Part shown: positions 3,680 to 55,668 of the stretch, in pieces
Position numbering within the stretch: the stretch's first letter is position 1
How the letters are laid out: each line of letters starts with the position of its first letter
Source of the DNA: Candidatus Kerfeldbacteria bacterium
Lineage (GTDB): Bacteria > Patescibacteriota > Patescibacteriia > UBA9570
NCBI GenBank assembly: GCA_016182495.1
Contig: JACPGK010000002.1
Location: 12,581 to 76,580 of the forward strand
DNA: 64,000 nucleotides
Direction: 5' to 3'
Position numbers and translations under genes: made by a program
Notes under the pieces: generated by a model
Seen by the model: the letters and a program-made list of their open reading frames with translations, nothing else
Told to the model about the DNA's origin: nothing
Databases searched by the model: none

Positions 3680-4740
3680 AAGGTATTGTATTGGTTACAC
3701 TAGAATATCCTCCCCAGATTGGTGGCGTCGGCCGATTTTATCATCGTCTTGTTCAACTAGCAACACCAGTACAATCTATCGACGTGCTTGATAATAACCA
3801 TGGTCAATTGCTTCATCCCTGGATAAAGGCCGGTTTGGTTCTATGGCGTACATTACGCTCGAATGATTATACTGCTTTGATTATTGGTCAAATTTTACCG
3901 CTCGGTACAGTAGCAGCTTTGCTATCGTATATTTGGCCAGGTCGTTTGATTATTTTTACTCACGGTATGGATGTGTTGGTGCCACAGCGGTATTGGCGTA
4001 AACGTTTGTTGATGCGTTGGATTGTTCAGCGAGCTGATCATATTATTGCTATTTCTCATTTTACGGCTCAAGCCATTCAACAATTAGTTCCGTCACTACC
4101 GCCCACGAAAATTTCACTACTACCCCCAGGGCCATATATTACCCCGGAAATTATAACAACTCAATTAATAGTCGATCTACCCGATCAATTTATGTTATCA
4201 GTTGGTAGATTAGTTGAACGTAAAGGATTTGATCGAGCTATTGCTGCTATGGCTAGTTTATCATCCAAACATAACTCGGTGCACTATGTTATCGCCGGTA
4301 GTGGGGTTGATCAAGCGCGCTTGGCCAGTTTAGCCAATACACTTGGAGTATCACAGCGCGTGCATATTTTGACTGAATTAACCGATCAATACATTGCCCA
4401 ACTGTATAGCCGTTGTTTATTTTTAGTCCAGCCATCACGCGCCTTGGCTAACGGTGATGTGGAAGGTTTTGGCATGGTGGTGTTGGAAGCCAACACTTTT
4501 AGCAAACCAGCTATTGTAGGCAATAGTGGCGGCATGCCTGATACGGTAGTGGCTAATCATACTGGCATTATCGTTGATGCTACGGCTGTATCAGCCATCA
4601 GCGCAGCTATGGAACAACTTCTTAACCAACCAGCCTACTGCCAACACCTAGGGCAAATGGCAGCTCGTTGGGTACAACAACAGCATGATTGGTCGGCTAA
4701 AGTTGCGACCCTACTAAAAGTGTGTCATGATAGCGACTAA
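3676..4740 (+). CDS. Glycosyltransferase family 4 (GT-B, retaining)
   Basis: C-terminal EGFGMVVLEA..KPAIVGNSGGMPD motif typical of GT1/GT4 enzymes. Confidence 0.75.
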   Translation: MKGIVLVTLEYPPQIGGVGRFYHRLVQLATPVQSIDVLDNNHGQLLHPWIKAGLVLWRTLRSNDYTALIIGQILPLGTVAALLSYIWPGRLIIFTHGMDVLVPQRYWRKRLLMRWIVQRADHIIAISHFTAQAIQQLVPSLPPTKISLLPPGPYITPEIITTQLIVDLPDQFMLSVGRLVERKGFDRAIAAMASLSSKHNSVHYVIAGSGVDQARLASLANTLGVSQRVHILTELTDQYIAQLYSRCLFLVQPSRALANGDVEGFGMVVLEANTFSKPAIVGNSGGMPDTVVANHTGIIVDATAVSAISAAMEQLLNQPAYCQHLGQMAARWVQQQHDWSAKVATLLKVCHDSD

Positions 4741-4743
4741 TCT

Positions 4744-5589
4744 ATGGATTTATCCATAATTATTGCTTCATGGAATGTTAAACAGCATTTATACGATTGT
4801 TTACAATCAATTTATCATTATACCGCCGGCATACAGTTTGAAGTAATCGTAGTTGATAACGCTTCTAGTGACGGTTCGGCTACCATGGTGGCAGAGCAAT
4901 TTCCCCAAGTACGATTAGTATGTAATGCTGTCAATCGTGGCTTTGGAGCGGCTAATAATCAAGGCATCGCCATAGCGACTGGCCAGCACATTCTTTTTTT
5001 GAATGACGATACTGCTATTACCGATAATATTTTTCCCACAGTAATGGCTCGTTTTAAAAACATCGCTGACCAATCCATTGGTTTGATTGGTTGTAGTTTA
5101 CGTAACCCAGATGGTACCATTCAAGCATCAGTGCGGCGTTTTCCCACAGTGTGGGATCAGTCAATTATTTTATTAAAATTACATCATTTTGTACCAGCGT
5201 TACTCAATCGCTATATCATGACTACGTTTAACTATCAATCTGAACAAACGGTTGATCAAGTGATGGGAGCTTTTATGTTAGTGCCAAAACTAGTGCTCGA
5301 GCGCGTTGGAATATTTGATGAACATTTTTTTAATTGGTTTGAAGAAGTAGATTTGCAACGGCGTATTCAACAGGCCGGTTGGCAGGTGCTCTATACCCCA
5401 GTAGCGCATTGTATTCATGTTCGAGGAGCTAGCTTTAAGCAGTGGCGACGACCACAGGCGCAAACAGTATTCAATCAATCAATGCGGTATTATTTTGGTA
5501 AACATCACAGCAAGTTGGCGCAGTATTATCTTACCAGCCTACAGCCTATTAGTATGTTGTTATCCTATGTCGCGCAAACTTTTTCTTAG
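4744..5589 (+). CDS. Glycosyltransferase family 2
   Basis: LSIIIASWNVKQ..EVIVVDNASSDGS N-terminal GT-A signature. Confidence 0.8.
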   Translation: MDLSIIIASWNVKQHLYDCLQSIYHYTAGIQFEVIVVDNASSDGSATMVAEQFPQVRLVCNAVNRGFGAANNQGIAIATGQHILFLNDDTAITDNIFPTVMARFKNIADQSIGLIGCSLRNPDGTIQASVRRFPTVWDQSIILLKLHHFVPALLNRYIMTTFNYQSEQTVDQVMGAFMLVPKLVLERVGIFDEHFFNWFEEVDLQRRIQQAGWQVLYTPVAHCIHVRGASFKQWRRPQAQTVFNQSMRYYFGKHHSKLAQYYLTSLQPISMLLSYVAQTFS

Positions 5590-7051
5590 TACCATTGCTG
5601 CCTTAACTACTGTTGAATTGGTATCATGGTTATCATTTGGTAATGGATTTTTGCAGCGAGCTAGTTTTGCAGTAGTGATAGTAGTTATTTTTATAGCCAG
5701 TTGTTATCGCTTGGAGTATGGCATATACGCTATTGTGGCTGAATTAGTAGTAGGATCATTTGGGTACATTCTTAGTTTTCCTATATATTCCTTCAACGTG
5801 TCGTTGCGATTAGGGTTATTTTTAGTTGTACTGGTAGCTTGGTTGATAACAGCCTGGCGCACACACCACTGGGCTTATCGTACACTGACGCTGTGGCCAT
5901 GGTATGTGGGGATATTTACTTTTTTAATTATTGGGGTAGGGCTAGGGTGGCTGAATCAGCATAATCTGAAAGACATCTTTTTTGATTGGAACGGGTACAT
6001 TTTTTTTGGAATGATTTTTCCGTTTAGCCATGTACTCAAAAGTCGTGTTACGATTGAACGATTATGTACCGTGCTGGTGGCTGGGGTAACAGTATTAGGC
6101 GTACAATCAGTTTTAGTATTATTTTTATTCTCACACCAAACTACCTTTGGGTATTATTTGCCAACCATCTATCAGTGGATTCGAGATTATCGCATTGGTG
6201 AAATTACCTTGCAAGCTCATAATTTTTACCGGGTATTTTTTCAAAGCCATCTCTATGTTATCTTTGCCTTAGTACTTAGTTTGACGCGTTTTTTTAGCAA
6301 GCCAAGCTGGTGGTGGTGGCTGGTAATGGCTGTAACGACAAACTTACTGGTGTTGAGTTATTCTCGAACGTTTTGGCTGGTTACTGTTGTAACACTGACA
6401 ATGTGGCTAGTAGCTTTATGGTACTATCGTTTAGTGACAGTGCGCCAATTGCCGGGGCGTTTGGCTTTAACCGTACTAGCCATGGGAGTTGGTTACATGG
6501 TATTGTATGGCATCGTCGTTGTACCATTGGCTGGCGATCGAGGCAGCGATATTTCAGCCACTGAATTATTAACCGATCGGGCAGATAATCCCGTTACCGA
6601 GGCAGCTGGTAGTTCGCGCTTAGCCTTACTTGGCCCACTTTGGCATAAAGTGATTGAACACCCCTTCATTGGATCCGGCTTTGGTGCAACCGTAACCTAT
6701 ACCAGTAAGGATCCTCGAGTATTAGCAACACACCCAGATGGCCGATATACTACCTACGCATTTGAATGGGGGTATTTAGATATCTGGCTGAAATTAGGAG
6801 TACCAGGGATAGTGTTATTTTTTGGTTTACTGTATAGCCTAATCCGACAAGCTCATCAAGTACTGCGTTCAACTGTCCATCAATTAGCCAATAATGATCG
6901 CACTACTATTATTACCGTCGCTCTAGGTACACTTGCGTTAGGCGGCATTCATCTGTTAACGCCCTATCTTAATCATCCGCTCGGTATTGGCTGGCTCATT
7001 ATAGCTAGTTGTGTCATGCAGTTCTATGTCAACCAAGCTGCCCAAAATTAG
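5567..7051 (+). CDS. Polytopic membrane protein, Wzy/O-antigen-ligase-like (start placed at internal ATG 5567 to avoid overlap with upstream GT2)
   Basis: About 10-12 hydrophobic segments with a large hydrophilic loop (residues about 380-440 of the ORF), embedded among GT genes; assignment by context and architecture, no motif verified. Confidence 0.45.
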   Translation: MSRKLFLSTIAALTTVELVSWLSFGNGFLQRASFAVVIVVIFIASCYRLEYGIYAIVAELVVGSFGYILSFPIYSFNVSLRLGLFLVVLVAWLITAWRTHHWAYRTLTLWPWYVGIFTFLIIGVGLGWLNQHNLKDIFFDWNGYIFFGMIFPFSHVLKSRVTIERLCTVLVAGVTVLGVQSVLVLFLFSHQTTFGYYLPTIYQWIRDYRIGEITLQAHNFYRVFFQSHLYVIFALVLSLTRFFSKPSWWWWLVMAVTTNLLVLSYSRTFWLVTVVTLTMWLVALWYYRLVTVRQLPGRLALTVLAMGVGYMVLYGIVVVPLAGDRGSDISATELLTDRADNPVTEAAGSSRLALLGPLWHKVIEHPFIGSGFGATVTYTSKDPRVLATHPDGRYTTYAFEWGYLDIWLKLGVPGIVLFFGLLYSLIRQAHQVLRSTVHQLANNDRTTIITVALGTLALGGIHLLTPYLNHPLGIGWLIIASCVMQFYVNQAAQN

Positions 7052-28175: not shown

Positions 28176-28360
28176 GGGACGTTTTATTATCTATAAAACA
28201 TAGGCTAATAAATCAGGAGAACGTAGCTTGGCGTTGTTCTCAATTATAAGCCTAAGTATTAGGCTAGCTCTTTACCAAACCTTTCTTACCCGGGAGCAGT
28301 TCAGCTCCCAACATCCAAGTTGACTAGGTGACGCCAAACCTAGCAACTGGAAAGGGCGCC

Positions 28361-29569
28361 ATGAAGCGCTCGATCGTCCTTCTCATCACGCTGGTGACCA
28401 TGGTGGTCGCTGGCATCCCCAACAACTCCGTCGCGTGTGGGGTTACCCCCACCAGCTCGACCAACGAGAGGTTGGATGAGCATGGTGATACTTACACCAT
28501 CGACAACGACGACAACACTTACGCGTTGATCACCGACCTCTACGCCGACATCTACCCGGTGTTGCCCAACCAGAGCTACTCGGGATTCCATCTCGAGGCC
28601 TACTCCGCCTGCCTGGACAACGTCATCAACGTGAACATCGGGTACTGGGATGATGGTGTTGAGTTGTACGTCAACATCATCACCGAGGAGTTCCTGGTCA
28701 ACGATGGGGATAGCATCTCGTTTTCCTTCTCCCCTGTCGTCACTACTTCATTTCAGGTCATCATCATCGACTATAGCTGTGAGCTTGGTGTTCGTGAGAT
28801 GGCTGCGGTGGCGACGTACGAGTCCTGCAACGGCATCGACGACACCTGCGACGGTGCGGTTGACGAGGGCTACGACCTCGATGCCGATGGCTACACCTCG
28901 TGCGGCGGCGACTGTGTCGACACCGACCCCACGGTCAACCCCGGCGCCACCGAGCTGTGCGACGAGCAGGACAACGACTGCGACGGTGCCACCGACAACG
29001 ACTGCGACGGTGATGACGACACCACGCCGGTCGAGGACGACGATACGACGTCCGATGACGACACCACCGCGGACGACGACGACACGCCACCCGACGACGA
29101 CACGCCACCCGACGATGACACGACCTCGGGAGATGACGACACCACGGCCGATGACGACACCACGGCCGATGACGATACGACGGTGAACGACGATGACACG
29201 ACCTCGGGAGATGACGACACCACGGCCGATGACGACACCACTACGGTGGACGATGACGATACGACGGTGAACGACGATGACACCACGCCGCCCGAGGATG
29301 ACAACGACGGCGACGGGTACACGATGAACGACGGCGACTGCGATGACGCCGACAACGACGTCTACCCGGGCGCGGTCGAGCTGTGCGACGAGCAGGACAA
29401 CGACTGCGACGGCAACGTCGACGAGGATCCCGACGACTGCGGCGACTCCGGTCTGGACCGGGTGATCGCCTGCGGTGGGGGCTGCGACGCCTCCACCGGT
29501 GGTAGCCAGCAGGCCTGGATGGGTCTGCTGGTGGCGGTGATCCTGCTGCTGCGTCGCAGGCAGCAGTGA
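28361..29569 (+). CDS. Secreted acidic repeat protein with MopE-like putative metal-binding Cys motifs and MYXO-CTERM-like tail (GC-rich, foreign-looking)
   Basis: Signal peptide MKRSIVLLITLVTMVVAG; three CxDxDxDGxxxC..PGAxELCDEQDNDCDG modules; DDDTT(A/S/V) tandem repeats; C-terminal CGGGC..hydrophobic..RRRQQ; GAC/ACC/GCC-rich codons unlike neighbours. Start at ATG 28361 (GGAAAGGG SD) preferred over GTG 28328. Confidence 0.75.
   Translation: MKRSIVLLITLVTMVVAGIPNNSVACGVTPTSSTNERLDEHGDTYTIDNDDNTYALITDLYADIYPVLPNQSYSGFHLEAYSACLDNVINVNIGYWDDGVELYVNIITEEFLVNDGDSISFSFSPVVTTSFQVIIIDYSCELGVREMAAVATYESCNGIDDTCDGAVDEGYDLDADGYTSCGGDCVDTDPTVNPGATELCDEQDNDCDGATDNDCDGDDDTTPVEDDDTTSDDDTTADDDDTPPDDDTPPDDDTTSGDDDTTADDDTTADDDTTVNDDDTTSGDDDTTADDDTTTVDDDDTTVNDDDTTPPEDDNDGDGYTMNDGDCDDADNDVYPGAVELCDEQDNDCDGNVDEDPDDCGDSGLDRVIACGGGCDASTGGSQQAWMGLLVAVILLLRRRQQ
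29011..29295 (+). repeat. In-frame tandem repeats (18-nt GATGACGACACCACGGCC-like units nested in an approximately 84-nt higher-order repeat)
   Basis: Repeated gatgacacgacctcgggagatgacgacaccacggccgatgacgacacca block seen twice about 84 nt apart; encodes DDDTT[AS] tracts. Confidence 0.8.
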
Positions 29570-29603
29570 TCAATAGAGAAGGGTAAAGGTTCAGGAGGAA
29601 TCG

Positions 29604-29642
29604 GGGGAGGAGAGCTGTACAAAAAACACCGCTCTACTCCCC
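29604..29642. other. GC-rich hairpin between convergent genes (12-bp stem with 1 mismatch, 15-nt loop), no U-tract
   Basis: GGGGAGGAGAGC..GCTCTACTCCCC inverted repeat 35 nt after the GC-rich gene stop. Confidence 0.4.
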
Positions 29643-29690
29643 TACCCAAATAAGCCAGCTACAATTTCACAATGTACCGTAGCTAGTTTA

Positions 29691-30941
29691 TTACGGTAAA
29701 TACAACATCGGGTCAACCGGAATGCCGTTCAACAACACACTAAAATGCACATGTGAACCAGTAGAAAACGCCCCGGCTCCAGTGGTGCCGGGCAAGCCCC
29801 CAACATAAGCTACCACTTGGCCTTGGTTCACAGGTTGATCTGGTTCAATATTAGGAGCAATGCCGCTAACGTGCCCATACACCGTAGCAAAGTTATCCGC
29901 ATGCACAATCATCACATAGGCATAACTGGGTGAGCCATCAAATCGTACTACGGCCACTACCCCGCTATCAGCAGCTTTGAGGGGCGTGCCTTGGGGCGCG
30001 GCAATATCAATGGCATCGTGTTCAAAATAGCGCCGAAAAATATAATTAGGATCATGAAACGTAGTGGTGATTACTCCATTCACTGGCCAAATCGGTTGAA
30101 ACTCGGTTGGTAAGGTGAAATTAGCATTATCGTTTATGCCTGAACCAGTTTGGGCTTTAGTGAGTTGATCAAGGGTAGTGCGAGCAGATTTTTCTAAGGC
30201 AGATAATTCTGAATGAACGGCGGTTTGCTCATCTTGCAAATTTTTAACTAATTGCTGAAATTTAGCTTCATCATTTTGCACTTCGGTTAACAGGTTTTTT
30301 TTGTAATTTTTTTCACCAGCTAAAGAATCTTGCCGCACTTCTAATTCTTGTTCTTTTTCTTCGGCAGTTTGCTGACGATCGGATAAAACATCCTGATCTT
30401 CTTGCAGTTGTTGTTTTAAGGCTTGCAAATCAAGCAGGGCTTTGGTAAATTGCGTATTGACTTTTTCGGTATACTCAACCTGTTCGGAAAATTCCGACAA
30501 GGTTTGGTGAGTTAAGGCCACTTCAAGATAAGTTTGTTGTTCAAAATTATACAAATCAAGCACTAAAGCGCTGATTTGACCTTTTTTATCATCGACCTGT
30601 TCAGTTGTAGTAGCAATATCTATGGCCAGTTGATCAATTTGTAGCCCGAGCGTTTCAATTTCGTTACCGGTTTGCTCAATTTCAGTTTCATTAATAATAA
30701 TATCTTGATCAATCACTTCTAATTGACTGGTTAAATTTAATTTTTCTTGCTGTTTGGTTTTTAAGTTTTCTCGATAGGTATTAATTTTTTCTTCCAAACC
30801 ATCATTTTCCGATCGTTTTCGTTCAATATCAGCATTTAAACGATTTAATTTTTGTTGGGTAGCCGAATCATCCGCTGCTAGCGCCGGCCTAGCACACAGT
30901 ACCATCAGTAAACAAAGGCTACGAAGTGTGATCCATTTCAT
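29691..30941 (-). CDS. M23 family peptidase with N-terminal coiled-coil (EnvC/NlpD-like murein hydrolase or activator)
   Basis: Signal peptide, long heptad coiled-coil, C-terminal HDAID and HVHFSV (HxxxD, HxH) M23 motifs. Confidence 0.8.
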   Translation of the reverse strand: MKWITLRSLCLLMVLCARPALAADDSATQQKLNRLNADIERKRSENDGLEEKINTYRENLKTKQQEKLNLTSQLEVIDQDIIINETEIEQTGNEIETLGLQIDQLAIDIATTTEQVDDKKGQISALVLDLYNFEQQTYLEVALTHQTLSEFSEQVEYTEKVNTQFTKALLDLQALKQQLQEDQDVLSDRQQTAEEKEQELEVRQDSLAGEKNYKKNLLTEVQNDEAKFQQLVKNLQDEQTAVHSELSALEKSARTTLDQLTKAQTGSGINDNANFTLPTEFQPIWPVNGVITTTFHDPNYIFRRYFEHDAIDIAAPQGTPLKAADSGVVAVVRFDGSPSYAYVMIVHADNFATVYGHVSGIAPNIEPDQPVNQGQVVAYVGGLPGTTGAGAFSTGSHVHFSVLLNGIPVDPMLYLP

Positions 30942-42171: not shown

Positions 42172-43266
42172 CTAATTAAAACTGACTAATCCAACGGTAT
42201 CGGGCACTATTGCTATCCAGCTATTACCAGCTACTAAATTAATTGGCTCACCATCATTGTTATACAACACAGTTCGGCTTAACCGATCTTTTTTTTGCCA
42301 CGAACCCTCAATCACTTGGCCATTATTAGCAACATACACCGTACCAGTGCCGGTTACTGAAAAATTTATACGCCCATTATCGCCAGCGGCTATGCCTGGT
42401 GGTACAATTTGTACAATAATATTACGAACCGAAATAGTCTGATTGGTCGCGGCATCAACCTGCAGCTCGCCACCATTGTACCGTTCATAGTTGTTGGCGG
42501 CGTAATTATAGCGGTAGTGTACTTGGTACAGTGGGCCGCTACCAAAATCAATATCGATGTATTTTTCTTCCACTGGAGAGGTAACAGGTTTAGCATCTTC
42601 GGTAAATTGCCAACTGTCAAATTCGGTAATGGGCGCTTGCAGTTTTTTATCGCGTAAAGCAAATTGTAATAGTTCGGCTGATGTAAATAAATTATGCGGA
42701 GCTACTCGAGCATTATCTCTAAAAAAGAATCTACTATCGCTGCCAAGAGCTGATAAATCTTTCAGTTGTAGTCCAGCAATGGCCTGCATGGCTTCGGGGC
42801 TGCCACCGGCATGGGCATACAAAGCATCGTATTCGGAAACGAATTCTAGATAGGTTGGCCGAGCACTGCGCACTGGCCCAATTTTTTCAGGCAAATCACC
42901 ACTGTACAGTGCTAAAAATCGAGTAATACCGCCTTCCACAATCACTTCATATACTACTTGAGCTGTTCCTAAACCAAATTGTGGTCTAACGCCGTCAAAA
43001 GCAGCATTTTCAATCATCACGCCAATAGGTTGATGAGCTGCTTCGCTTGATTGCACTAGCATACCATCAAGTAAACGGGCTGTTAGTGAGATAGTGGAGG
43101 TTGGTGTAATACCATCAGTAACGGTTAATGGTATAGCAACCACATCATGCTGCATCACATAGTATATGCCAAACCAAACGCCAACTGCTCCAATAAGCAA
43201 AACCACAGCTAAGGCTGCTAGTTGAGCCTGTCGATTATAACGCAGTCGACGTAACCAGTCCCCCAT
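42172..43266 (-). CDS. Membrane-anchored DUF3048 (YerB)-like protein, paralog A
   Basis: N-terminal TM; conserved block VVYEVIVEGGITRFLALY..IGPVRSARPTYLE shared with upstream paralog. Confidence 0.5.
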   Translation of the reverse strand: MGDWLRRLRYNRQAQLAALAVVLLIGAVGVWFGIYYVMQHDVVAIPLTVTDGITPTSTISLTARLLDGMLVQSSEAAHQPIGVMIENAAFDGVRPQFGLGTAQVVYEVIVEGGITRFLALYSGDLPEKIGPVRSARPTYLEFVSEYDALYAHAGGSPEAMQAIAGLQLKDLSALGSDSRFFFRDNARVAPHNLFTSAELLQFALRDKKLQAPITEFDSWQFTEDAKPVTSPVEEKYIDIDFGSGPLYQVHYRYNYAANNYERYNGGELQVDAATNQTISVRNIIVQIVPPGIAAGDNGRINFSVTGTGTVYVANNGQVIEGSWQKKDRLSRTVLYNNDGEPINLVAGNSWIAIVPDTVGLVSFN

Positions 43267-43278
43267 AATTACACTAGG

Positions 43279-44385
43279 CTAGTACGTGACAGCTGTATCA
43301 GTTGGTACAAGTTCGATCCAGGTTGTACCAGGATTAAATGATACTTCTTCAGTATCATTGATGTAAAATTTTGTTCGATCACCCCGATTAGCTTTTTTCC
43401 AACGACCAACCAGAACAGTGCCATCTTGAAATACCACTGCTTCGCCTTCACCCAGGGTAATAATATCAAGTCGGCCAGTATCTGTTTCAAGCAAAGTGGT
43501 CTCCACTCGTTGCACAACGATATTACGAGCCGATAATTGTTCGTTAGTATTGGCATCCATCTGTTCAACGCCAGCATTCCAACGTTTATATGAATTGGTG
43601 GCTTGATCGTAGCGCCATTCAACCGCATAATCATCATTTGACCAATCAATGGTTAATGGTGCTACGTTGATGGGTCGATCTTTTTTATTCAGTTGCTGTT
43701 TAAATAAGTACGGTTCATACTCCCCCACTCGTTCAATGAAACCAAGATCGCGCAGAGCAAAGGTCATCAATTCAGAAGTGGTAAATAAATTATGGGGCGC
43801 TTCAATATTTTGATCGCGATAAAAATATTGAGCATAGCTAAACTGGTTAAGATCGGTCATAAATTCATCACTCCCTAGTATGCCTAGGGCTTGCGGACTG
43901 CCTCCTACATGACCAAAGATACCGCCATATTCTTCAGCTAAGTCAACTAAATAATGCCGGGCACTGCGCACTGGCCCAATTTGTTTAATCGCCTCATTAG
44001 AAGCATACACTGCTAGAAATCGAGTAATGCCGCCTTCAGCTAATACTTCATACACCAAATTGGCTTGGCTTAAACCAGCTTGGGGCCTGACGGTTACTAA
44101 ATTTTCGATCACTAAGGCTAACGGTAAAAAATTACTTTCGTTTACTGGTACGGCCACTCCATCAATTCGGCGAGGCGCGGTATCAGATACCGTAGCGCGG
44201 TTAGCGTTGATAATTTGACTATCAAATACATCAGGGCCGCTGGGGGTTGAACGGGATTGCCAAACAATCAATCCAATTACACCGGCTAACACCAGTAACG
44301 CAATGGCTGCTGTGATAATTTGTGCTGGCCGATTATTTTTGAAAGCCCACAACCAATCTTTTAGTTTATCTTTAATAGTACTCAT
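43279..44385 (-). CDS. Membrane-anchored DUF3048 (YerB)-like protein, paralog B
   Basis: LVYEVLAEGGITRFLAVY..IGPVRSARHYLVD; start at 44385 (MSTIKDKL) abuts rplY stop. Confidence 0.5.
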   Translation of the reverse strand: MSTIKDKLKDWLWAFKNNRPAQIITAAIALLVLAGVIGLIVWQSRSTPSGPDVFDSQIINANRATVSDTAPRRIDGVAVPVNESNFLPLALVIENLVTVRPQAGLSQANLVYEVLAEGGITRFLAVYASNEAIKQIGPVRSARHYLVDLAEEYGGIFGHVGGSPQALGILGSDEFMTDLNQFSYAQYFYRDQNIEAPHNLFTTSELMTFALRDLGFIERVGEYEPYLFKQQLNKKDRPINVAPLTIDWSNDDYAVEWRYDQATNSYKRWNAGVEQMDANTNEQLSARNIVVQRVETTLLETDTGRLDIITLGEGEAVVFQDGTVLVGRWKKANRGDRTKFYINDTEEVSFNPGTTWIELVPTDTAVTY

Positions 44386-51477: not shown

Positions 51478-52581
51478 ATGGCTAAACCTGCAAAAAGTCC
51501 CAAATTACCACCACAGCACATTCATCGGGTTTTTTCGCCAGTGATGTTAGGTTCTATGGTGCTATGTGTAGCATTAGTTGGTACCGTAGCCTATTTGGCT
51601 TTTACCAAAACTACTATTACTGTCACATTAAATCGAGTGGCTAATGATTATTCGTTTGAATTTTCAGCCGATGAACTAGATGCCGAAATTGTCAGCCGTG
51701 ATGTAACCACTACCTATGACGTTAATAATTTTTCAGAGGGTGAACGTATTCCAGAAGTAGCCACTGGTGAAGTGACGCTTTACAACACGCATACAGTTGA
51801 TCAACCCTTGGTAAAAACCACTCGGCTATTATCGCAAGACGGAGTACTGTTTCGTACTAACGAAACAGTGGTTGTGCCGGCGGGCGATTCAGTGACTGTA
51901 GCAGTATATGCCGATGCCGTGGGTGAGGCTGGCAATATTCCCCCGAGCAGTTTTACCATTGTAGCGTTGCGTGAAACTTTGCAGGAATTAATTTATGCCA
52001 AAAGTACCACCGCTATGACCGGTGGCATTGTGACAGAAGTGACTGTCACGGAAGCAACCATTAACGAAGCCATTGCCACCACTGAAAAACAACTTCGTCA
52101 GATCGCCGCTGATGTGTTACATGATCAAGCCCAAACTGATGCCATTACTATTACTCCGAATACTGTATGGTTGACTACGCCTGATTATACTACCAGTCCC
52201 GAGCTTGGTGGCGTAACGCGAGCCATTACCGTAACAGCTTCTGCTACCGCCACTGGTTTAGCCTTTGATCGCGATAAGTTGATTAATATGATTGAACAAG
52301 AGACCGGCGGCACTGTAAAAAAGAAAAATTTCTCTTTTGACGTTACTGTATCACCAGATACTACTATCATGGTGAGTGGTCGAGCAAAGGTGGTTCAAGC
52401 TGATGATGATTTAAGCTTTATTGATAAGAAAAAACTAGTCAATAAAGCAGAATCTGAAGTACGTCAATATTTAAAAAACTATAGTCAAGTTGATGATGTT
52501 GGTATTCAATTTTCTCCATTTTGGCTAAAAACTACCCCGGCCCTAGAGCGTAACATTATTATTCAAGCTCAAACTAAATAA
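51478..52581 (+). CDS. Membrane-anchored hypothetical protein
   Basis: N-terminal TM (MLGSMVLCVALVGTVAYLAF), Thr/Val-rich beta-type extracytoplasmic region. Confidence 0.4.
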   Translation: MAKPAKSPKLPPQHIHRVFSPVMLGSMVLCVALVGTVAYLAFTKTTITVTLNRVANDYSFEFSADELDAEIVSRDVTTTYDVNNFSEGERIPEVATGEVTLYNTHTVDQPLVKTTRLLSQDGVLFRTNETVVVPAGDSVTVAVYADAVGEAGNIPPSSFTIVALRETLQELIYAKSTTAMTGGIVTEVTVTEATINEAIATTEKQLRQIAADVLHDQAQTDAITITPNTVWLTTPDYTTSPELGGVTRAITVTASATATGLAFDRDKLINMIEQETGGTVKKKNFSFDVTVSPDTTIMVSGRAKVVQADDDLSFIDKKKLVNKAESEVRQYLKNYSQVDDVGIQFSPFWLKTTPALERNIIIQAQTK

Positions 52582-52592
52582 TTTGATCAGAT

Positions 52593-54347
52593 ATGTCGGA
52601 ACATCCACCCCTTTATAATGAACGGCATTCGGCGGCCCATTTATTGGCAGCCGCGGCTTTGGAATTATTTCCTGGCACTCAATTAGGTACTGGTCCGGTA
52701 ACCGCTACTGGATTTTACTATGATATGCTACTCCCCCGCCCTATTGTTGAAGCGGATTTAGGCAAGTTAGAAACGATCATGTGCCGACTGATGACTGAAG
52801 GGCATCAGTTTATGTGTCAGCCAGTCACTGCACAGGCAGCTACACAATTTTTTCATGATCAACCCTTTAAACAAGAGTTGGTTGATAAATTTGCTCAACA
52901 GCAACGTGCTTTAACTTTGTACAAAACTGGTTCATTTACCGATTTGTGTGAAGGTGGCCATGTGGTTAATACTAGCCAACTTGATCCGAAAGCTTTTCGC
53001 TTAACCAAACTGGCTGGGGCCTATTGGCAAGCTGATGAAACTCGTCCACAACTTACTCGTATTTACGGTGTACTATTTCAATCAGAGGTTGACTTAAAAA
53101 ATTATTTTGAACAGCAAGCTCAAGCCGAACTGCGGGATCATCGCAAACTAGGAAAAGAACTAGACTTGTTTATTTTTTCAGAATTAATTGGGCCGGGTTT
53201 GCCGGTATATACTCCAAAAGGGGCCAAATTGCGCCGTTTAATTCAAGAATTATCTCGTGAACAGCGTGAGTTAATTGGGTATGAAGAAGTGCACACACCT
53301 AATATCAATAAAGCGGAATTGTTTAAGATCTCTGGTCATTATGATAAATATAAAAATGACATGCTGGCAGTGCATTCAAATTATTCAACGGAAGAATATT
53401 TTTTGAAACCAATGAACTGTCCCCAACACACTCAAGTATTTGCCGCTCAATTGCGTAGTTATAAAGATTTGCCATTACGTTTAGCTGATTTCGCTAACTT
53501 GTATCGTGATGAAAAGCCGGGTGAATTATCTGGGCTTACTCGGTTGCGAGCTTTTTCACAAGATGATGCTCATTGTTTTTGTCGCGAAGATCAAATTACC
53601 GAAGAATTTTCTCGAGTATTGAAAGCGATTGAAACGGAATTGACTATTTATGGTATGGAATATTATGTCCGTTTATCAATTTGGGATCCAGCCCATAAAG
53701 AAAAATTTCTGGGTGATGAAACGGTCTGGGATAAAGCGCAAACCTTGTTACAGGGTTTATTAGATGATCGCAAATTGAATTATGTTATTGGTGAAGGTGA
53801 AGCTGCTTTTTATGGCCCTAAAATGGATTTTATTGCTAAAGACTCACTTGGTCGAGAGTGGCAAATTTCTACTATTCAGATTGATTTTAATATGCCACAG
53901 CGTTTTGGTTTAGAATATATTACCGCTGATGGTTCTAGCCAAACTCCAGTGATGATTCATAGTGCCTTAGTTGGTTCACCCGAACGGTTTTTAGCAATTT
54001 TAATTGAACACTACGGTGGTAATTTTCCAACCTGGTTAGCGCCAGTGCACGTTAGCCTACTAGCAGTTAGTGAAAAACATAATCAGTACTGTTTACAATT
54101 AGCTGAACAGTTCAAAGTAGCCGGACTGCGGGTGACAGTTAATACTGATAACGAAACGGTTGGTAATAAAATTCGTAAAGCCACGAAAGATAAAACTCCA
54201 TATCTGGTGGTGATTGGTGATAAAGAAATCGAATCTCAACAATTAGCACTACGTAAACGGGGTAGTAAGGATACTACTACGATAACGCTGGCTGATTTTA
54301 TAGGCTATGTACAAACCAAAATACAGCAGCGTGATTTGACAGTGTGA
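52593..54347 (+). CDS. thrS: Threonyl-tRNA synthetase (no N-terminal TGS domain)
   Basis: Begins in N2 editing domain (HSAAHLLAAA), class II core, C-terminal anticodon-binding domain; 584 aa. Confidence 0.85.
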   Translation: MSEHPPLYNERHSAAHLLAAAALELFPGTQLGTGPVTATGFYYDMLLPRPIVEADLGKLETIMCRLMTEGHQFMCQPVTAQAATQFFHDQPFKQELVDKFAQQQRALTLYKTGSFTDLCEGGHVVNTSQLDPKAFRLTKLAGAYWQADETRPQLTRIYGVLFQSEVDLKNYFEQQAQAELRDHRKLGKELDLFIFSELIGPGLPVYTPKGAKLRRLIQELSREQRELIGYEEVHTPNINKAELFKISGHYDKYKNDMLAVHSNYSTEEYFLKPMNCPQHTQVFAAQLRSYKDLPLRLADFANLYRDEKPGELSGLTRLRAFSQDDAHCFCREDQITEEFSRVLKAIETELTIYGMEYYVRLSIWDPAHKEKFLGDETVWDKAQTLLQGLLDDRKLNYVIGEGEAAFYGPKMDFIAKDSLGREWQISTIQIDFNMPQRFGLEYITADGSSQTPVMIHSALVGSPERFLAILIEHYGGNFPTWLAPVHVSLLAVSEKHNQYCLQLAEQFKVAGLRVTVNTDNETVGNKIRKATKDKTPYLVVIGDKEIESQQLALRKRGSKDTTTITLADFIGYVQTKIQQRDLTV

Positions 54348-54408
54348 TTTTTTTTATATATACTTTTCCCGCTTCGCGTTAAGGAAGACGCGAGCAAGCG
54401 AGGGCTCG

Positions 54409-54642
54409 ATGACGCCAATGAAGGCTCTCGAGCAGTCTATCGCCCACTACCAGTTGCGCTTCGGCTTGTCTGAAACGCTGCTGCTGTGGGAGATGCGTAA
54501 CCTGGCGTTCGCCTACCACTATGGGGATGCCAACCTGGCTACCCTGACGGGTTGGCGAGATGACCGGCTGGTTGCGAACACGCTGGAATATGCGTTGTTC
54601 AACAACTGGCTCCAGGTTCTGCTGCATCTCTGTGCGCGATAG
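54409..54642 (+). CDS. Small GC-rich ORF (77 aa) of unknown function inside a compositionally foreign insert
   Basis: GAGGG SD 5 nt upstream; CTG/GCG-rich codon usage unlike host; followed by strong terminator. Confidence 0.4.
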   Translation: MTPMKALEQSIAHYQLRFGLSETLLLWEMRNLAFAYHYGDANLATLTGWRDDRLVANTLEYALFNNWLQVLLHLCAR

Positions 54643-54648
54643 ACTCGC

Positions 54649-55668
54649 TCACTGGTAGCCGCTCGGAGTTGGAAGACTTCGGGCGGCTACCACATATTTT
54701 TGTTCGTACTGCTGTACAATAGCGGCGTTCCCGGCGATCATTGGATATTTTTGATGCAATTGGCTTGGAGTAATATCTAAAATATTACGCTGTCCATCAG
54801 TGGCATAACCGCCGGCTTGTTCTACAATAAAAGCTAATGGTTTAAGTTCGTAGTTTAAACGCAGTTTAGCCTGGCGCTTACTGGCGTTATCATAAGGCCG
54901 AAAATAGAGCCCACCTTTAAGTAAGTTACGATGAATATCCGCTACTAAGGAACCAATATGACGGGAAGTAGCCTGTGGAGTAGTACGCTTAAAATCCTCT
55001 AAAAATTTTTGTGATACAGCATCCCAGGTGTGAGCGTAAGCTTCGTTGGCAGAATACACTTGGCATTGCTGCGGAATAGTGATGCGATGATGGGATAATA
55101 ACCATTCCCCAATACTAGGATCAAGCGTAAAGCCATGCACTCCGTGACCAGTGGAATATACCAACATAGTACTGGAGCCGTATAAAATGTAACCAGCGGC
55201 TACTTGAGCATGGCCAGGTTGTAAAAAATCCGCCAATGTGCCAGGCCCGATATTTGATAGTCGGCGATGAATTGAAAAAATTGTGCCAATTGATACGTTA
55301 AAATCAATATTCGATGAGCCGTCGAGTGGATCAAAAGCAATCACATAGTTGGCTTGAGCTGACTGTGGTAGCGGTACAATGTCGGTTTCTTCTTCCGAGG
55401 CAATGGCGCAAAAATGTTGTGTTTTGGAAAGATAATTAATAAATAATTCGTTAGCCAGCACATCTAGTTTTTTTACTTGATCACCAGAAGTATTTTCTAA
55501 ACCGGCATCACCTAAAATACCAACCAAGCCGGCTTTATTGACTTCCCGTGAGATAGTTTTACCAACTACTCCTAAATCAAGCAAAATATTGGAAAACTCT
55601 CCGGTACCGCCATGTTCGGCTTCTTGCTCCAGCACAAATTGCGATAAGGTAGGATGTTCTAATTTCAT
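54649..55668 (-). CDS. fbp: Fructose-1,6-bisphosphatase class 1
   Basis: DPLDGSSNIDFNVSIGTIFSI metal-binding motif, overall FBPase I collinearity; C-terminal 12 aa encoded by GC-rich hairpin DNA. Confidence 0.85.
   Translation of the reverse strand: MKLEHPTLSQFVLEQEAEHGGTGEFSNILLDLGVVGKTISREVNKAGLVGILGDAGLENTSGDQVKKLDVLANELFINYLSKTQHFCAIASEEETDIVPLPQSAQANYVIAFDPLDGSSNIDFNVSIGTIFSIHRRLSNIGPGTLADFLQPGHAQVAAGYILYGSSTMLVYSTGHGVHGFTLDPSIGEWLLSHHRITIPQQCQVYSANEAYAHTWDAVSQKFLEDFKRTTPQATSRHIGSLVADIHRNLLKGGLYFRPYDNASKRQAKLRLNYELKPLAFIVEQAGGYATDGQRNILDITPSQLHQKYPMIAGNAAIVQQYEQKYVVAARSLPTPSGYQ
54653..54705 (+). terminator. Rho-independent terminator (about 17-bp stem incl. wobbles, 8-nt loop, then ACATATTTTTGTT)
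   Basis: TGGTAGCCGCTCGGAG..CTTCGGGCGGCTACCA hairpin 54653-54692 plus U-tract; overlaps last 12 codons of minus-strand fbp. Confidence 0.55.

Follow-up and report, generated by a model that had tools for sequence, protein, structure and literature searches.

Palindromic insertion elements, such as the Rickettsia palindromic elements, extend the open reading frames (ORFs) of their hosts. In phages, a moron (the concept of Hendrix and Juhala) is a single ORF with its own promoter and factor-independent terminator, deviant in composition and placed between two genes that are direct neighbours in related genomes (PMC4378225). Type I toxins are typically hydrophobic membrane peptides of 20-60 aa, the mRNA descriptors of which are collected in T1TAdb (PMC8594479); the toxin mRNAs used for comparison here included hok, aapA1 and others (PMC8594479; PMC5416894; PMC6733600). 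The present analysis concerns a GC-rich patch in a 64-kb window (the whole stretch of DNA that was analysed, part of one contig) from a groundwater metagenome-assembled genome (MAG) of Candidatus Kerfeldbacteria, a lineage of the Candidate Phyla Radiation (CPR; Patescibacteria). The patch occupies window positions 54348-54702, between the convergent genes thrS and fbp, and is probably a horizontally acquired, self-contained small-gene cassette, moron-like in organisation, with an mRNA shaped by selection for structure and residing in a chromosomal hotspot.

The GC content of the 330-nt element was 0.585, against a window mean of 0.424 (sd 0.042; z = 3.9). Windows of 150 nt across 54350-54750 ranged from 0.53 to 0.59, whereas the flanks gave 0.38-0.42 and the adjacent genes 0.40-0.43; sustained values above 0.52 were seen elsewhere in the window at 28.2-30 kb alone. 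Within the 77-aa ORF of the patch the shift was restricted to the third codon position (GC1/2/3 = 0.59/0.37/0.76; permutation test p < 5e-5), positions 1 and 2 being host-like (about 0.55 and 0.38) and GC3 of the host and adjacent genes lying at about 0.30 (0.29-0.34). A preliminary description of this DNA had reported a GC-rich insert between the thrS and fbp stops, and both the stop position (54345-54347) and a composition outside the host range, in GC as well as in codon usage, were upheld. Its mention of enterobacterial-style codons was appropriate with regard to GC3, but no enterobacterial source was found: blastn (word size 11) returned no match in 5,426 E. coli genomes, PLSDB or INPHARED, and an enterobacterial, plasmid or phage origin was rejected. 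The parts of the locus are as follows.

52593-54347, plus strand: thrS, encoding threonyl-tRNA synthetase (ThrRS), native 3' end intact.
54336-54364, plus strand: sigma-70-type promoter-like site, TTGACA-17-TATACT, 11/12 consensus matches, the best in the region.
54336-54341, plus strand: -35 hexamer TTGACA, within the last Leu-Thr codons of thrS.
54359-54364, plus strand: -10 hexamer TATACT, separated from the -35 hexamer by a 17-nt spacer.
54348-54648, no strand assigned: 301-nt spacer separating the stop codons of thrS and fbp; the foreign segment runs on through the hairpin to ~54693.
54371-54395, plus strand: 5' stem-loop GCUUCGCGU-UAAGGA-AGACGCGAGC, where the transcript is predicted to begin.
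54400-54404, plus strand: Shine-Dalgarno (SD) sequence GAGGG, about 4-5 nt 5' of the ATG.
54409-54642, plus strand: 77-aa gene (MTPMKALEQS...), stop codon TAG at 54640-54642.
54430-54443, plus strand: 5' arm of the closing stem, GAGCAGUCUAUCGC, codons 8-12.
54634-54650, plus strand: 3' arm of the closing stem, GCGCGAUAGACUCGCUC, including the TAG stop codon.
54653-54702, plus strand: intrinsic terminator, an 18-bp stem with a GGAA loop, then CAUAUUUUUG.
54649-54693, minus strand: fbp stop codon and 14 tail codons (VVAARSLPTPSGYQ), read antisense to the cassette terminator.
54649-55668, minus strand: fbp, encoding class 1 fructose-1,6-bisphosphatase (FBPase), conserved fold complete by residue ~325.

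Transcription is predicted to start at ~54370-54372, about 7 nt past the -10 hexamer and at the base of the 5' stem-loop, and the promoter and terminator delimit a predicted transcript of ~330 nt (54371-54702). The terminator hairpin (54653-54692) comprised 18 pairs, 10 of them G-C, and a 4-nt loop, and was followed by CATATTTTTG. The same arrangement was found around the only homologue of the ORF, on contig L036 (described below), where a promoter-like site (TTGATT-17-(TGg)TATACA) occupied the equivalent place, a 5' stem-loop of different sequence the same position, and an equivalent strong hairpin with a U7 tract the 3' end. The small ORF, the GAGGG sequence upstream of it and the strong terminator had all been pointed out in the preliminary description, with a stem of roughly 17 bp in place of the 18 bp found here. 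That description had further placed the last 12 codons and the stop codon of fbp within the hairpin; the end of fbp does read hairpin DNA, but over 14 codons (VVAARSLPTPSGYQ, 54652-54693), and the stop codon (54649-54651) sits 2 nt beyond the stem. Apart from these small corrections to codon count and stop position, the initial observation was confirmed. An integron cassette was considered and rejected: no GTTRRRY/RYYYAAC core was seen by eye at the hairpin ends, and no integrase was called beside the spacer, in the window or in the relatives.

Fbp from this locus was 339 aa in length and ended in ...YEQKY-VVAARSLPTPSGYQ. Its 26 orthologues (62-78% identity) measured 322-336 aa and ended 0-10 residues past the conserved ...V.xYEx, so that the 14-aa hairpin-encoded tail was unique to this protein among the 27 aligned sequences; alignment to solved FBPases stopped at residue 323-325. 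The proposal that an insertion had replaced the native 3' end of fbp was therefore substantiated, with the tail absent from all 26 orthologues. On the opposite side, ThrRS ends in ...LTV* both here and in a relative with an empty spacer (L056), and the end of thrS is thus native.

Both junctions were supported by three Logan contigs, which represent independent assemblies of three other runs (SRR12113385, SRR12113428 and SRR12113432) and were colinear with the window without gaps at 99.75-99.78% identity; the preliminary description had called for read support across the junctions. Contigs L060 (54069-55673) and L061 (53904-55294) crossed both junctions and L051 (54506-55686) crossed the fbp side. 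Four single-nucleotide polymorphisms (SNPs; 54616, 54621, 54622 and 54814) separated the window from the three contigs over ~1.8 kb. Three of them (54616, 54621 and 54622) clustered within 7 nt in the last helix-coding region of the cassette, with none in thrS and one (54814) in fbp; local hypervariability, or recombination over a small patch, could account for this cluster.

The synteny context was taken for the loci of eight Fbp orthologues. The gene order miaB-like/fbp/thrS/Baseplate_J-like/dnaE was kept in all eight relatives, and the distance between the thrS and fbp stop codons, 301 nt here, was 15-89 nt in those without an insert. The state of the spacer was as follows.

L056, 15 nt: empty.
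L058, 36 nt: empty.
L059, 89 nt: empty.
L053, 694 nt (4979-5672): GC-rich 130-aa ORF, GC3 0.72.
L054, 544 nt (2364-2907): GC-rich 96-aa ORF, GC3 0.76.
L055, 728 nt (2115-2842): 205-aa ORF of host-like GC, no Pfam match.
L057, 577 nt (4470-5046): AT-rich 191-aa ORF, no Pfam match.

For the inserts of L053 and L054, host GC3 was 0.37. The occupants were mutually unrelated and found in either orientation, none resembled the cassette, and no trace of the 77-aa ORF was detected in the eight syntenic relatives. A search for ThrRS-based synteny among GTDB representatives gave a best match of 56% identity, and none with the element. As the spacer is empty in some relatives and variously occupied in others, the cassette was taken to be an insertion into a recurrent hotspot. 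The description of the patch as a compact imported cassette was accordingly strengthened by its foreign composition, its single ORF with terminator, the presence of its sole homologue at an unrelated locus and the other inserts in sibling spacers. With regard to the occupants themselves, the 130-aa ORF of L053 was weakly receiver-domain-like (Response_reg, E = 0.055), and L053 and L054 had in common, towards thrS, the motif GACTGTGGTCGAG(A/G)GGTGA, which was 95% identical over its 20 nt. Between dnaE and thrS in the window lies a 367-aa gene (51478-52581, plus strand) with a weak Baseplate_J-like match (E = 1.6e-5); because its position is kept in all syntenic relatives, it is regarded as a conserved gene of the CPR core neighbourhood and not as a prophage remnant.

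The 77-aa ORF corresponds to GenBank MBI2415132.1 (locus tag HYV33_00525), and every database contig bearing it represented this one locus. An exhaustive phmmer search of 1.84 billion representatives recovered one true relative, P0002, a 74-aa protein that was 44% identical and gapless over 68 residues, with start codons aligned; two further matches, P0003 and P0004, were rejected as spurious low-complexity repeat proteins. The BLAST-type comparison proposed in the preliminary description thus gave one protein homologue and no match in the DNA collections named above. P0002 is encoded on a 1.6-kb contig (L036) of a different organism (~50% GC), upstream of an Asn/Asp-tRNA synthetase gene, with GC1/2/3 of 0.59/0.44/0.80. 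At the nucleotide level the two homologues were 56% identical, in an alignment that was gapless over 204 nt and then contained a 9-nt indel; frame 0 alone was open in both, with aligned ATG and SD, and dN/dS for the pair was ~0.39. The BLOSUM62 sum was 150 in frame +0 and at most 84 in the other five frames (z = 5.5; 0/2000 column shuffles). AlphaFold2, run on the two-sequence alignment, predicted a four-helix protein with a pLDDT (predicted local distance difference test score) of 92.7 and a pTM (predicted template modelling score) of 0.81, whereas an 82-aa antisense ORF used as a control gave 56.9 and 0.21. The strain SNPs amounted at the protein level to V70I, L72M and one synonymous change (L71). 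Both proteins were acidic (pI 5.0-6.2) and not membrane-like, with a grand average of hydropathy (GRAVY) of 0.03-0.18 and a maximum Kyte-Doolittle value over 19 residues, KD(19), of 0.91-1.11. Judged from these sequence comparisons, the 77-aa ORF is a real gene for a soluble, acidic, predicted four-helix protein of a two-member orphan family. Tryptic peptides of its product include ALEQSIAHYQLR and DDRLVANTLEYALFNNWLQVLLHLCAR.

No match to the 77-aa protein was obtained in Pfam, NCBIfam, PHROG or PADLOC, and no significant sequence or fold match in the PDB or BFVD. A word-index search with the ORF and with the two-sequence profile returned just the two members, and a peptide-pattern scan of JGI metagenomes no further one. 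The DNA pattern CTGGTTGN{17,23}TGTTCAACAACTGG was found at 14 metagenome loci, where likeness was confined to the pattern, and at 0 viral loci; a second pattern, CAGTCTATCGN{180,210}TAGA, proved too permissive in viral contigs, with 120 chance loci and no relative. Both known copies adjoin a class II aminoacyl-tRNA synthetase gene, the present one lying downstream of thrS (52593-54347) and that of L036 upstream of an Asn/Asp-RS-like gene (670-1590; tRNA-synt_2, E = 4e-38), a proximity which, with n = 2, may be a coincidence.

Beyond encoding a protein, the cassette mRNA is demonstrably under a second constraint, as it folds beyond what is expected from its protein and codon usage. Folded as the plus strand, the whole unit gave a z-score of -7.6 (minus strand, -7.3), and the homologous L036 unit gave -7.4; removal of the terminator left -5.9 here, in comparison with -0.75 +/- 1.3 for window controls. 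GC-rich ORFs of the sibling hotspots gave -0.1 to -2.2, so that strong folding is not generic to GC-rich inserts. When synonymous codons were permuted 300 times with protein and codon usage held constant, z was -3.3 for the cassette (<=1/300) and -5.9 for L036 (0/300), against +1.5 to -2.1 for control genes. The preliminary description had noted RNA structure in the form of the terminator, which is present; the exceptional folding of the mRNA beyond the terminator is a new finding.

The structures predicted independently for the cassette and L036 agreed in 82/88 minimum free energy (MFE) pairs, matched within 2 columns, and RNAalifold on the two sequences gave z = -3.3. The longest identical nucleotide blocks were found to pair mutually, GCUGGUUG with CAACAACUGGC and CAGUCUAUCG (codons 9-12) with CGRUAGA-CUG, the last of which contains the TAG stop codon. 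Through the pairing of codons 8-12 with the region of the stop codon, the closing stem surrounds the entire ORF. Between the cassette and L036 this stem showed 2 compensatory and 1-2 one-sided changes and 0 broken pairs, and the probability of the stop codon being unpaired was 0.00 in both. For the predicted SD the mean unpaired probability was 0.35 here and 0.05 in L036, with different pairing partners and a transcription start that is itself a prediction.

In the explanation that we favour, a self-contained unit made up of promoter, 5' stem-loop, SD, 77-aa ORF and intrinsic terminator, giving a transcript of ~330 nt, would have landed a few codons within the 3' end of fbp, in the recurrent thrS-fbp landing site. 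Because of this landing position, the fbp frame runs for 14 codons over the terminator antisense to a stop; the new tail is probably neutral, as the insertion left the conserved FBPase fold whole and FBPases show no conservation in their tails. If the promoter is active, the 5' hairpin and the enclosed ORF would yield a compact, nuclease-resistant and translation-restrained message that is independent of host context, and the terminator would shield fbp from convergent plus-strand read-through. The hairpin has no U-tract after it on the minus strand, leaving fbp without an intrinsic terminator, and fbp transcription would therefore run antisense through the whole cassette into thrS.

Several points weigh against this explanation. 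The promoter and terminator are predictions from consensus matches only, and the promoter may be partly host-derived, as native thrS codons contain its -35 hexamer. The searches revealed no donor lineage, mobility gene, target-site duplication, repeat boundary or second copy, the last having been sought within the 64-kb window, where its absence also led to the rejection of a miniature inverted-repeat transposable element (MITE) or repetitive palindromic element; in view of this lack of donor and mobility traces, transfer is deduced from composition and presence/absence and was not observed. The distribution among the relatives could formally reflect multiple losses as well as gain, and the high GC3 could be kept by selection for RNA stability in place of being a mark of recent import. 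Family and fold searches assigned no function to the 77-aa protein. With regard to the RNA, internal helices were not register-conserved above slid-partner controls (36% vs 30-66%), a reciprocal one-position shift being seen in place of exact register, and only the closing stem and the overall architecture are therefore claimed; covariation is weak because the family has two members only, and the three strain SNPs of the cassette disrupt three predicted pairs.

Given the resemblance of the predicted transcript to type I toxin mRNAs, an alternative is that the cassette is a type I toxin-antitoxin-like or addictive module, in which the mRNA would be held inert by SD occlusion and the long-distance stem until activated by processing or unfolding, antisense RNA would be supplied by read-through from fbp, and the protein would be harmful when made. 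The T1TAdb descriptors of type I toxin mRNAs (PMC8594479) do fit an mRNA that is ~330 nt long, has a stem-loop at its 5' end and a terminator at its 3' end, and combines a conserved long-distance stem with an SD predicted to be partly occluded. The unit is moreover an orphan, patchy in distribution and stand-alone, and since the convergent fbp lacks a minus-strand terminator, antisense transcription is likely. However, a product of 74-77 aa exceeds the 20-60 aa of type I toxins, is not hydrophobic (GRAVY 0.03-0.18, maximum KD(19) 0.9-1.1) and is predicted to form a soluble four-helix bundle, with no match to PADLOC or any other toxin family. Nor was a minus-strand promoter with at least 9/12 matches found at a conserved position in or beside the cassette of either homologue, the sole minus-strand candidate of L036 being weak and situated around the start of asnS. 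What the long-range stem brings together is codons 8-12 and the stop-codon region, not the 5' end and the 3' end, and the SD-occluding partner differs between the two homologues. Such a module is thus considered unlikely.

It was also possible that the gene is an old resident, lost or replaced in the relatives, with its high GC kept purely by selection on mRNA structure. This would explain why the closest Fbp relatives (L054 and L055, 77-78% identity) have occupied spacers, the empty sites being found at 74-75% Fbp identity, a distribution because of which the direction of change is not proven. It would also agree with synonymous sites being shaped by structure, and with homologues that are 56% identical in nucleotides and similar in GC3 even though the GC3 of their hosts is 0.30 and 0.57. 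Against long residence, no trace of the ORF remains in the eight syntenic relatives, the occupants of the other spacers are unrelated, in either orientation, and include two that are GC3-rich without folding strongly, and the only homologue lies at a different locus. Furthermore, the unique Fbp tail is read from the terminator antisense, as a disruptive insertion would give. An old resident gene is, on balance, decidedly improbable.

GC-rich islands between convergent genes of an AT-rich genome are typical of structured RNA genes. The cassette could accordingly be a structured non-coding RNA gene with an incidental open frame, or a dual-function RNA that acts chiefly as RNA. Its high GC content in an AT-rich genome, the extreme fold z-scores of two diverged sequences, a structure exceeding the synonymous-permutation null, the mutual pairing of the longest conserved nucleotide blocks and a promoter and terminator that bracket ~330 nt would all suit such a gene. 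The comparison of the two homologues nevertheless carried the marks of a protein: strong three-base periodicity in both, frame +0 alone open in both with ATG and SD aligned, 204 gapless nt followed by a 9-nt indel, frame-specific amino-acid conservation (z = 5.5) and a confident AlphaFold2 fold for the sense frame only. The strain SNPs, too, break pairs yet are conservative in the protein. Rfam gave no match at gathering score in the 64 kb, and at E <= 10 only a chance one (E = 1.9) in 54200-54850; ARAGORN found no tmRNA or tRNA, and the known RNA genes (RNase P, tmRNA, SRP, 6S and large ncRNAs) were rejected on these searches. We regard an RNA gene as very improbable here; the RNA may still have a second role besides coding. 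A chimeric assembly, or contamination of the MAG, to which the abrupt change in composition and the orphan ORF might have pointed, has practically no chance of being correct, as it is refuted by the three independent Logan contigs, gap-free over the junctions and carrying a consistent 3-SNP strain variant.

The preliminary description had also called the patch a second one of foreign composition in the same window. Another GC-rich patch does exist, at 28200-30000, but it contains a different type of gene, and a link between the two was rejected for want of any sequence similarity. It holds one surface-protein gene of 413 aa (28328-29569, plus strand), the product of which has an N-terminal signal or anchor, Cys/Asp motifs of the 'DNDCDG' type and 12 tandem repeats of 18/21 nt for D/T-rich units. 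Its C-terminus, hydrophobic and with RRRQQ, is MYXO-CTERM-like (TIGR03901, E = 0.0013, 19.1 bits; cutoff 20 bits), which suggests a donor outside the CPR for this gene. The segments 28300-28540 and 29500-29740 fold unusually well (z = -4.7 and -6.0). Elsewhere, 42858-42991 and 43956-44092 hold two direct-repeat pairs ~1.1 kb apart (30 nt at 93%; 87 nt at 74%), suggestive of tandem paralogous genes. Across the whole window (1-64000), ARAGORN called no tRNA or tmRNA and no Rfam family reached its gathering score.

As a probable case of the uptake of a single foreign gene by a reduced CPR genome, the thrS-fbp locus is clean and fully bounded, with empty sites, alternative occupants and independent assemblies of the junctions. 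It would identify the spacer between two convergent housekeeping genes as a recurrent landing pad, and indicates that the conserved fold of a central metabolic enzyme can stay unharmed when the enzyme's tail is rewritten by an insertion. The general type of element, an autonomous accessory gene, is already familiar; the orphan family and the mRNA architecture are new. The former comprises two proteins, for which a small four-helix fold is predicted with confidence, and in the latter the synonymous sites of a small gene are arranged to enclose its ORF in RNA structure in two lineages at 56% nucleotide identity. If this architecture gates or stabilises expression, it would constitute a portable 'expression capsule' for horizontally moving genes, with a bearing on type I toxin mRNA biology and on the design of insulated synthetic cassettes. 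A more far-reaching and rather doubtful reading is that CPR and groundwater bacteria harbour a class of tiny, self-sufficient mobile genes, so far undescribed, to which the cassette belongs. These genes would carry an 'armoured' message, with a 5' hairpin, an ORF enclosed by a stem between its start-proximal part and its stop codon, and a strong terminator; protein and RNA would be co-selected, and the genes would persist and spread via permissive spacers beside essential genes. They could be dual-function or addiction-type modules resembling type I toxin mRNAs, with a soluble four-helix protein as a new effector that might inhibit the host, a phage or a neighbouring cell.

Compared with the known systems, the cassette resembles Rickettsia palindromic elements in that hairpin-forming inserted DNA is read in frame in a host protein, but it is single-copy within the 64-kb window, has its own gene and affects only the non-conserved Fbp tail. 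Like integration hotspots (genomic islets, regions of genome plasticity), the spacer is one position that is either empty or occupied by unrelated accessory genes, several of them foreign in composition; in contrast, the inserts here are very small single-gene ones (0.3-0.7 kb) in reduced CPR genomes, with no integrase, tRNA or recognisable repeat boundary at the spacer. With type I toxin mRNAs the cassette shares a short stand-alone mRNA (~330 nt, within the range of 150-400 nt), a 5' stem-loop, a terminator, a conserved long-distance stem around a small ORF and folding-shaped synonymous sites; SD occlusion, predicted in both homologues but with different partners, may be a further likeness. 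It differs from them in its soluble, acidic, predicted four-helix product of 74-77 aa, in a stem that joins codons 8-12 to the stop-codon region in place of the transcript ends, and in that the searches revealed no gene dedicated to an antisense RNA, the minus strand showing no promoter-like site with 9/12 or more matches either inside the cassette or bordering it.

The likeness to morons extends to a single ORF with a promoter-like site (11/12) and an 18-bp hairpin with U-tract (consensus matches only), to insertion between genes whose stop codons are separated in L056, L058 and L059 by 15, 36 and 89 nt, respectively, and to deviant composition (GC 0.585 vs 0.40-0.43 and GC3 0.76 vs 0.29-0.34 in the adjacent genes); for morons, too, the means of acquisition are unknown. 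Unlike a moron, the cassette is flanked by core synteny (ThrRS and FBPase), with no match to phage DNA in INPHARED and none in PHROG, has altered the end of a host gene with which it overlaps, and has an exceptionally structured mRNA, which is no part of the moron concept. With three of the four features of a moron found, and because the DNA that hosts it is core chromosome and not prophage, the cassette is therefore called moron-like as opposed to a moron.

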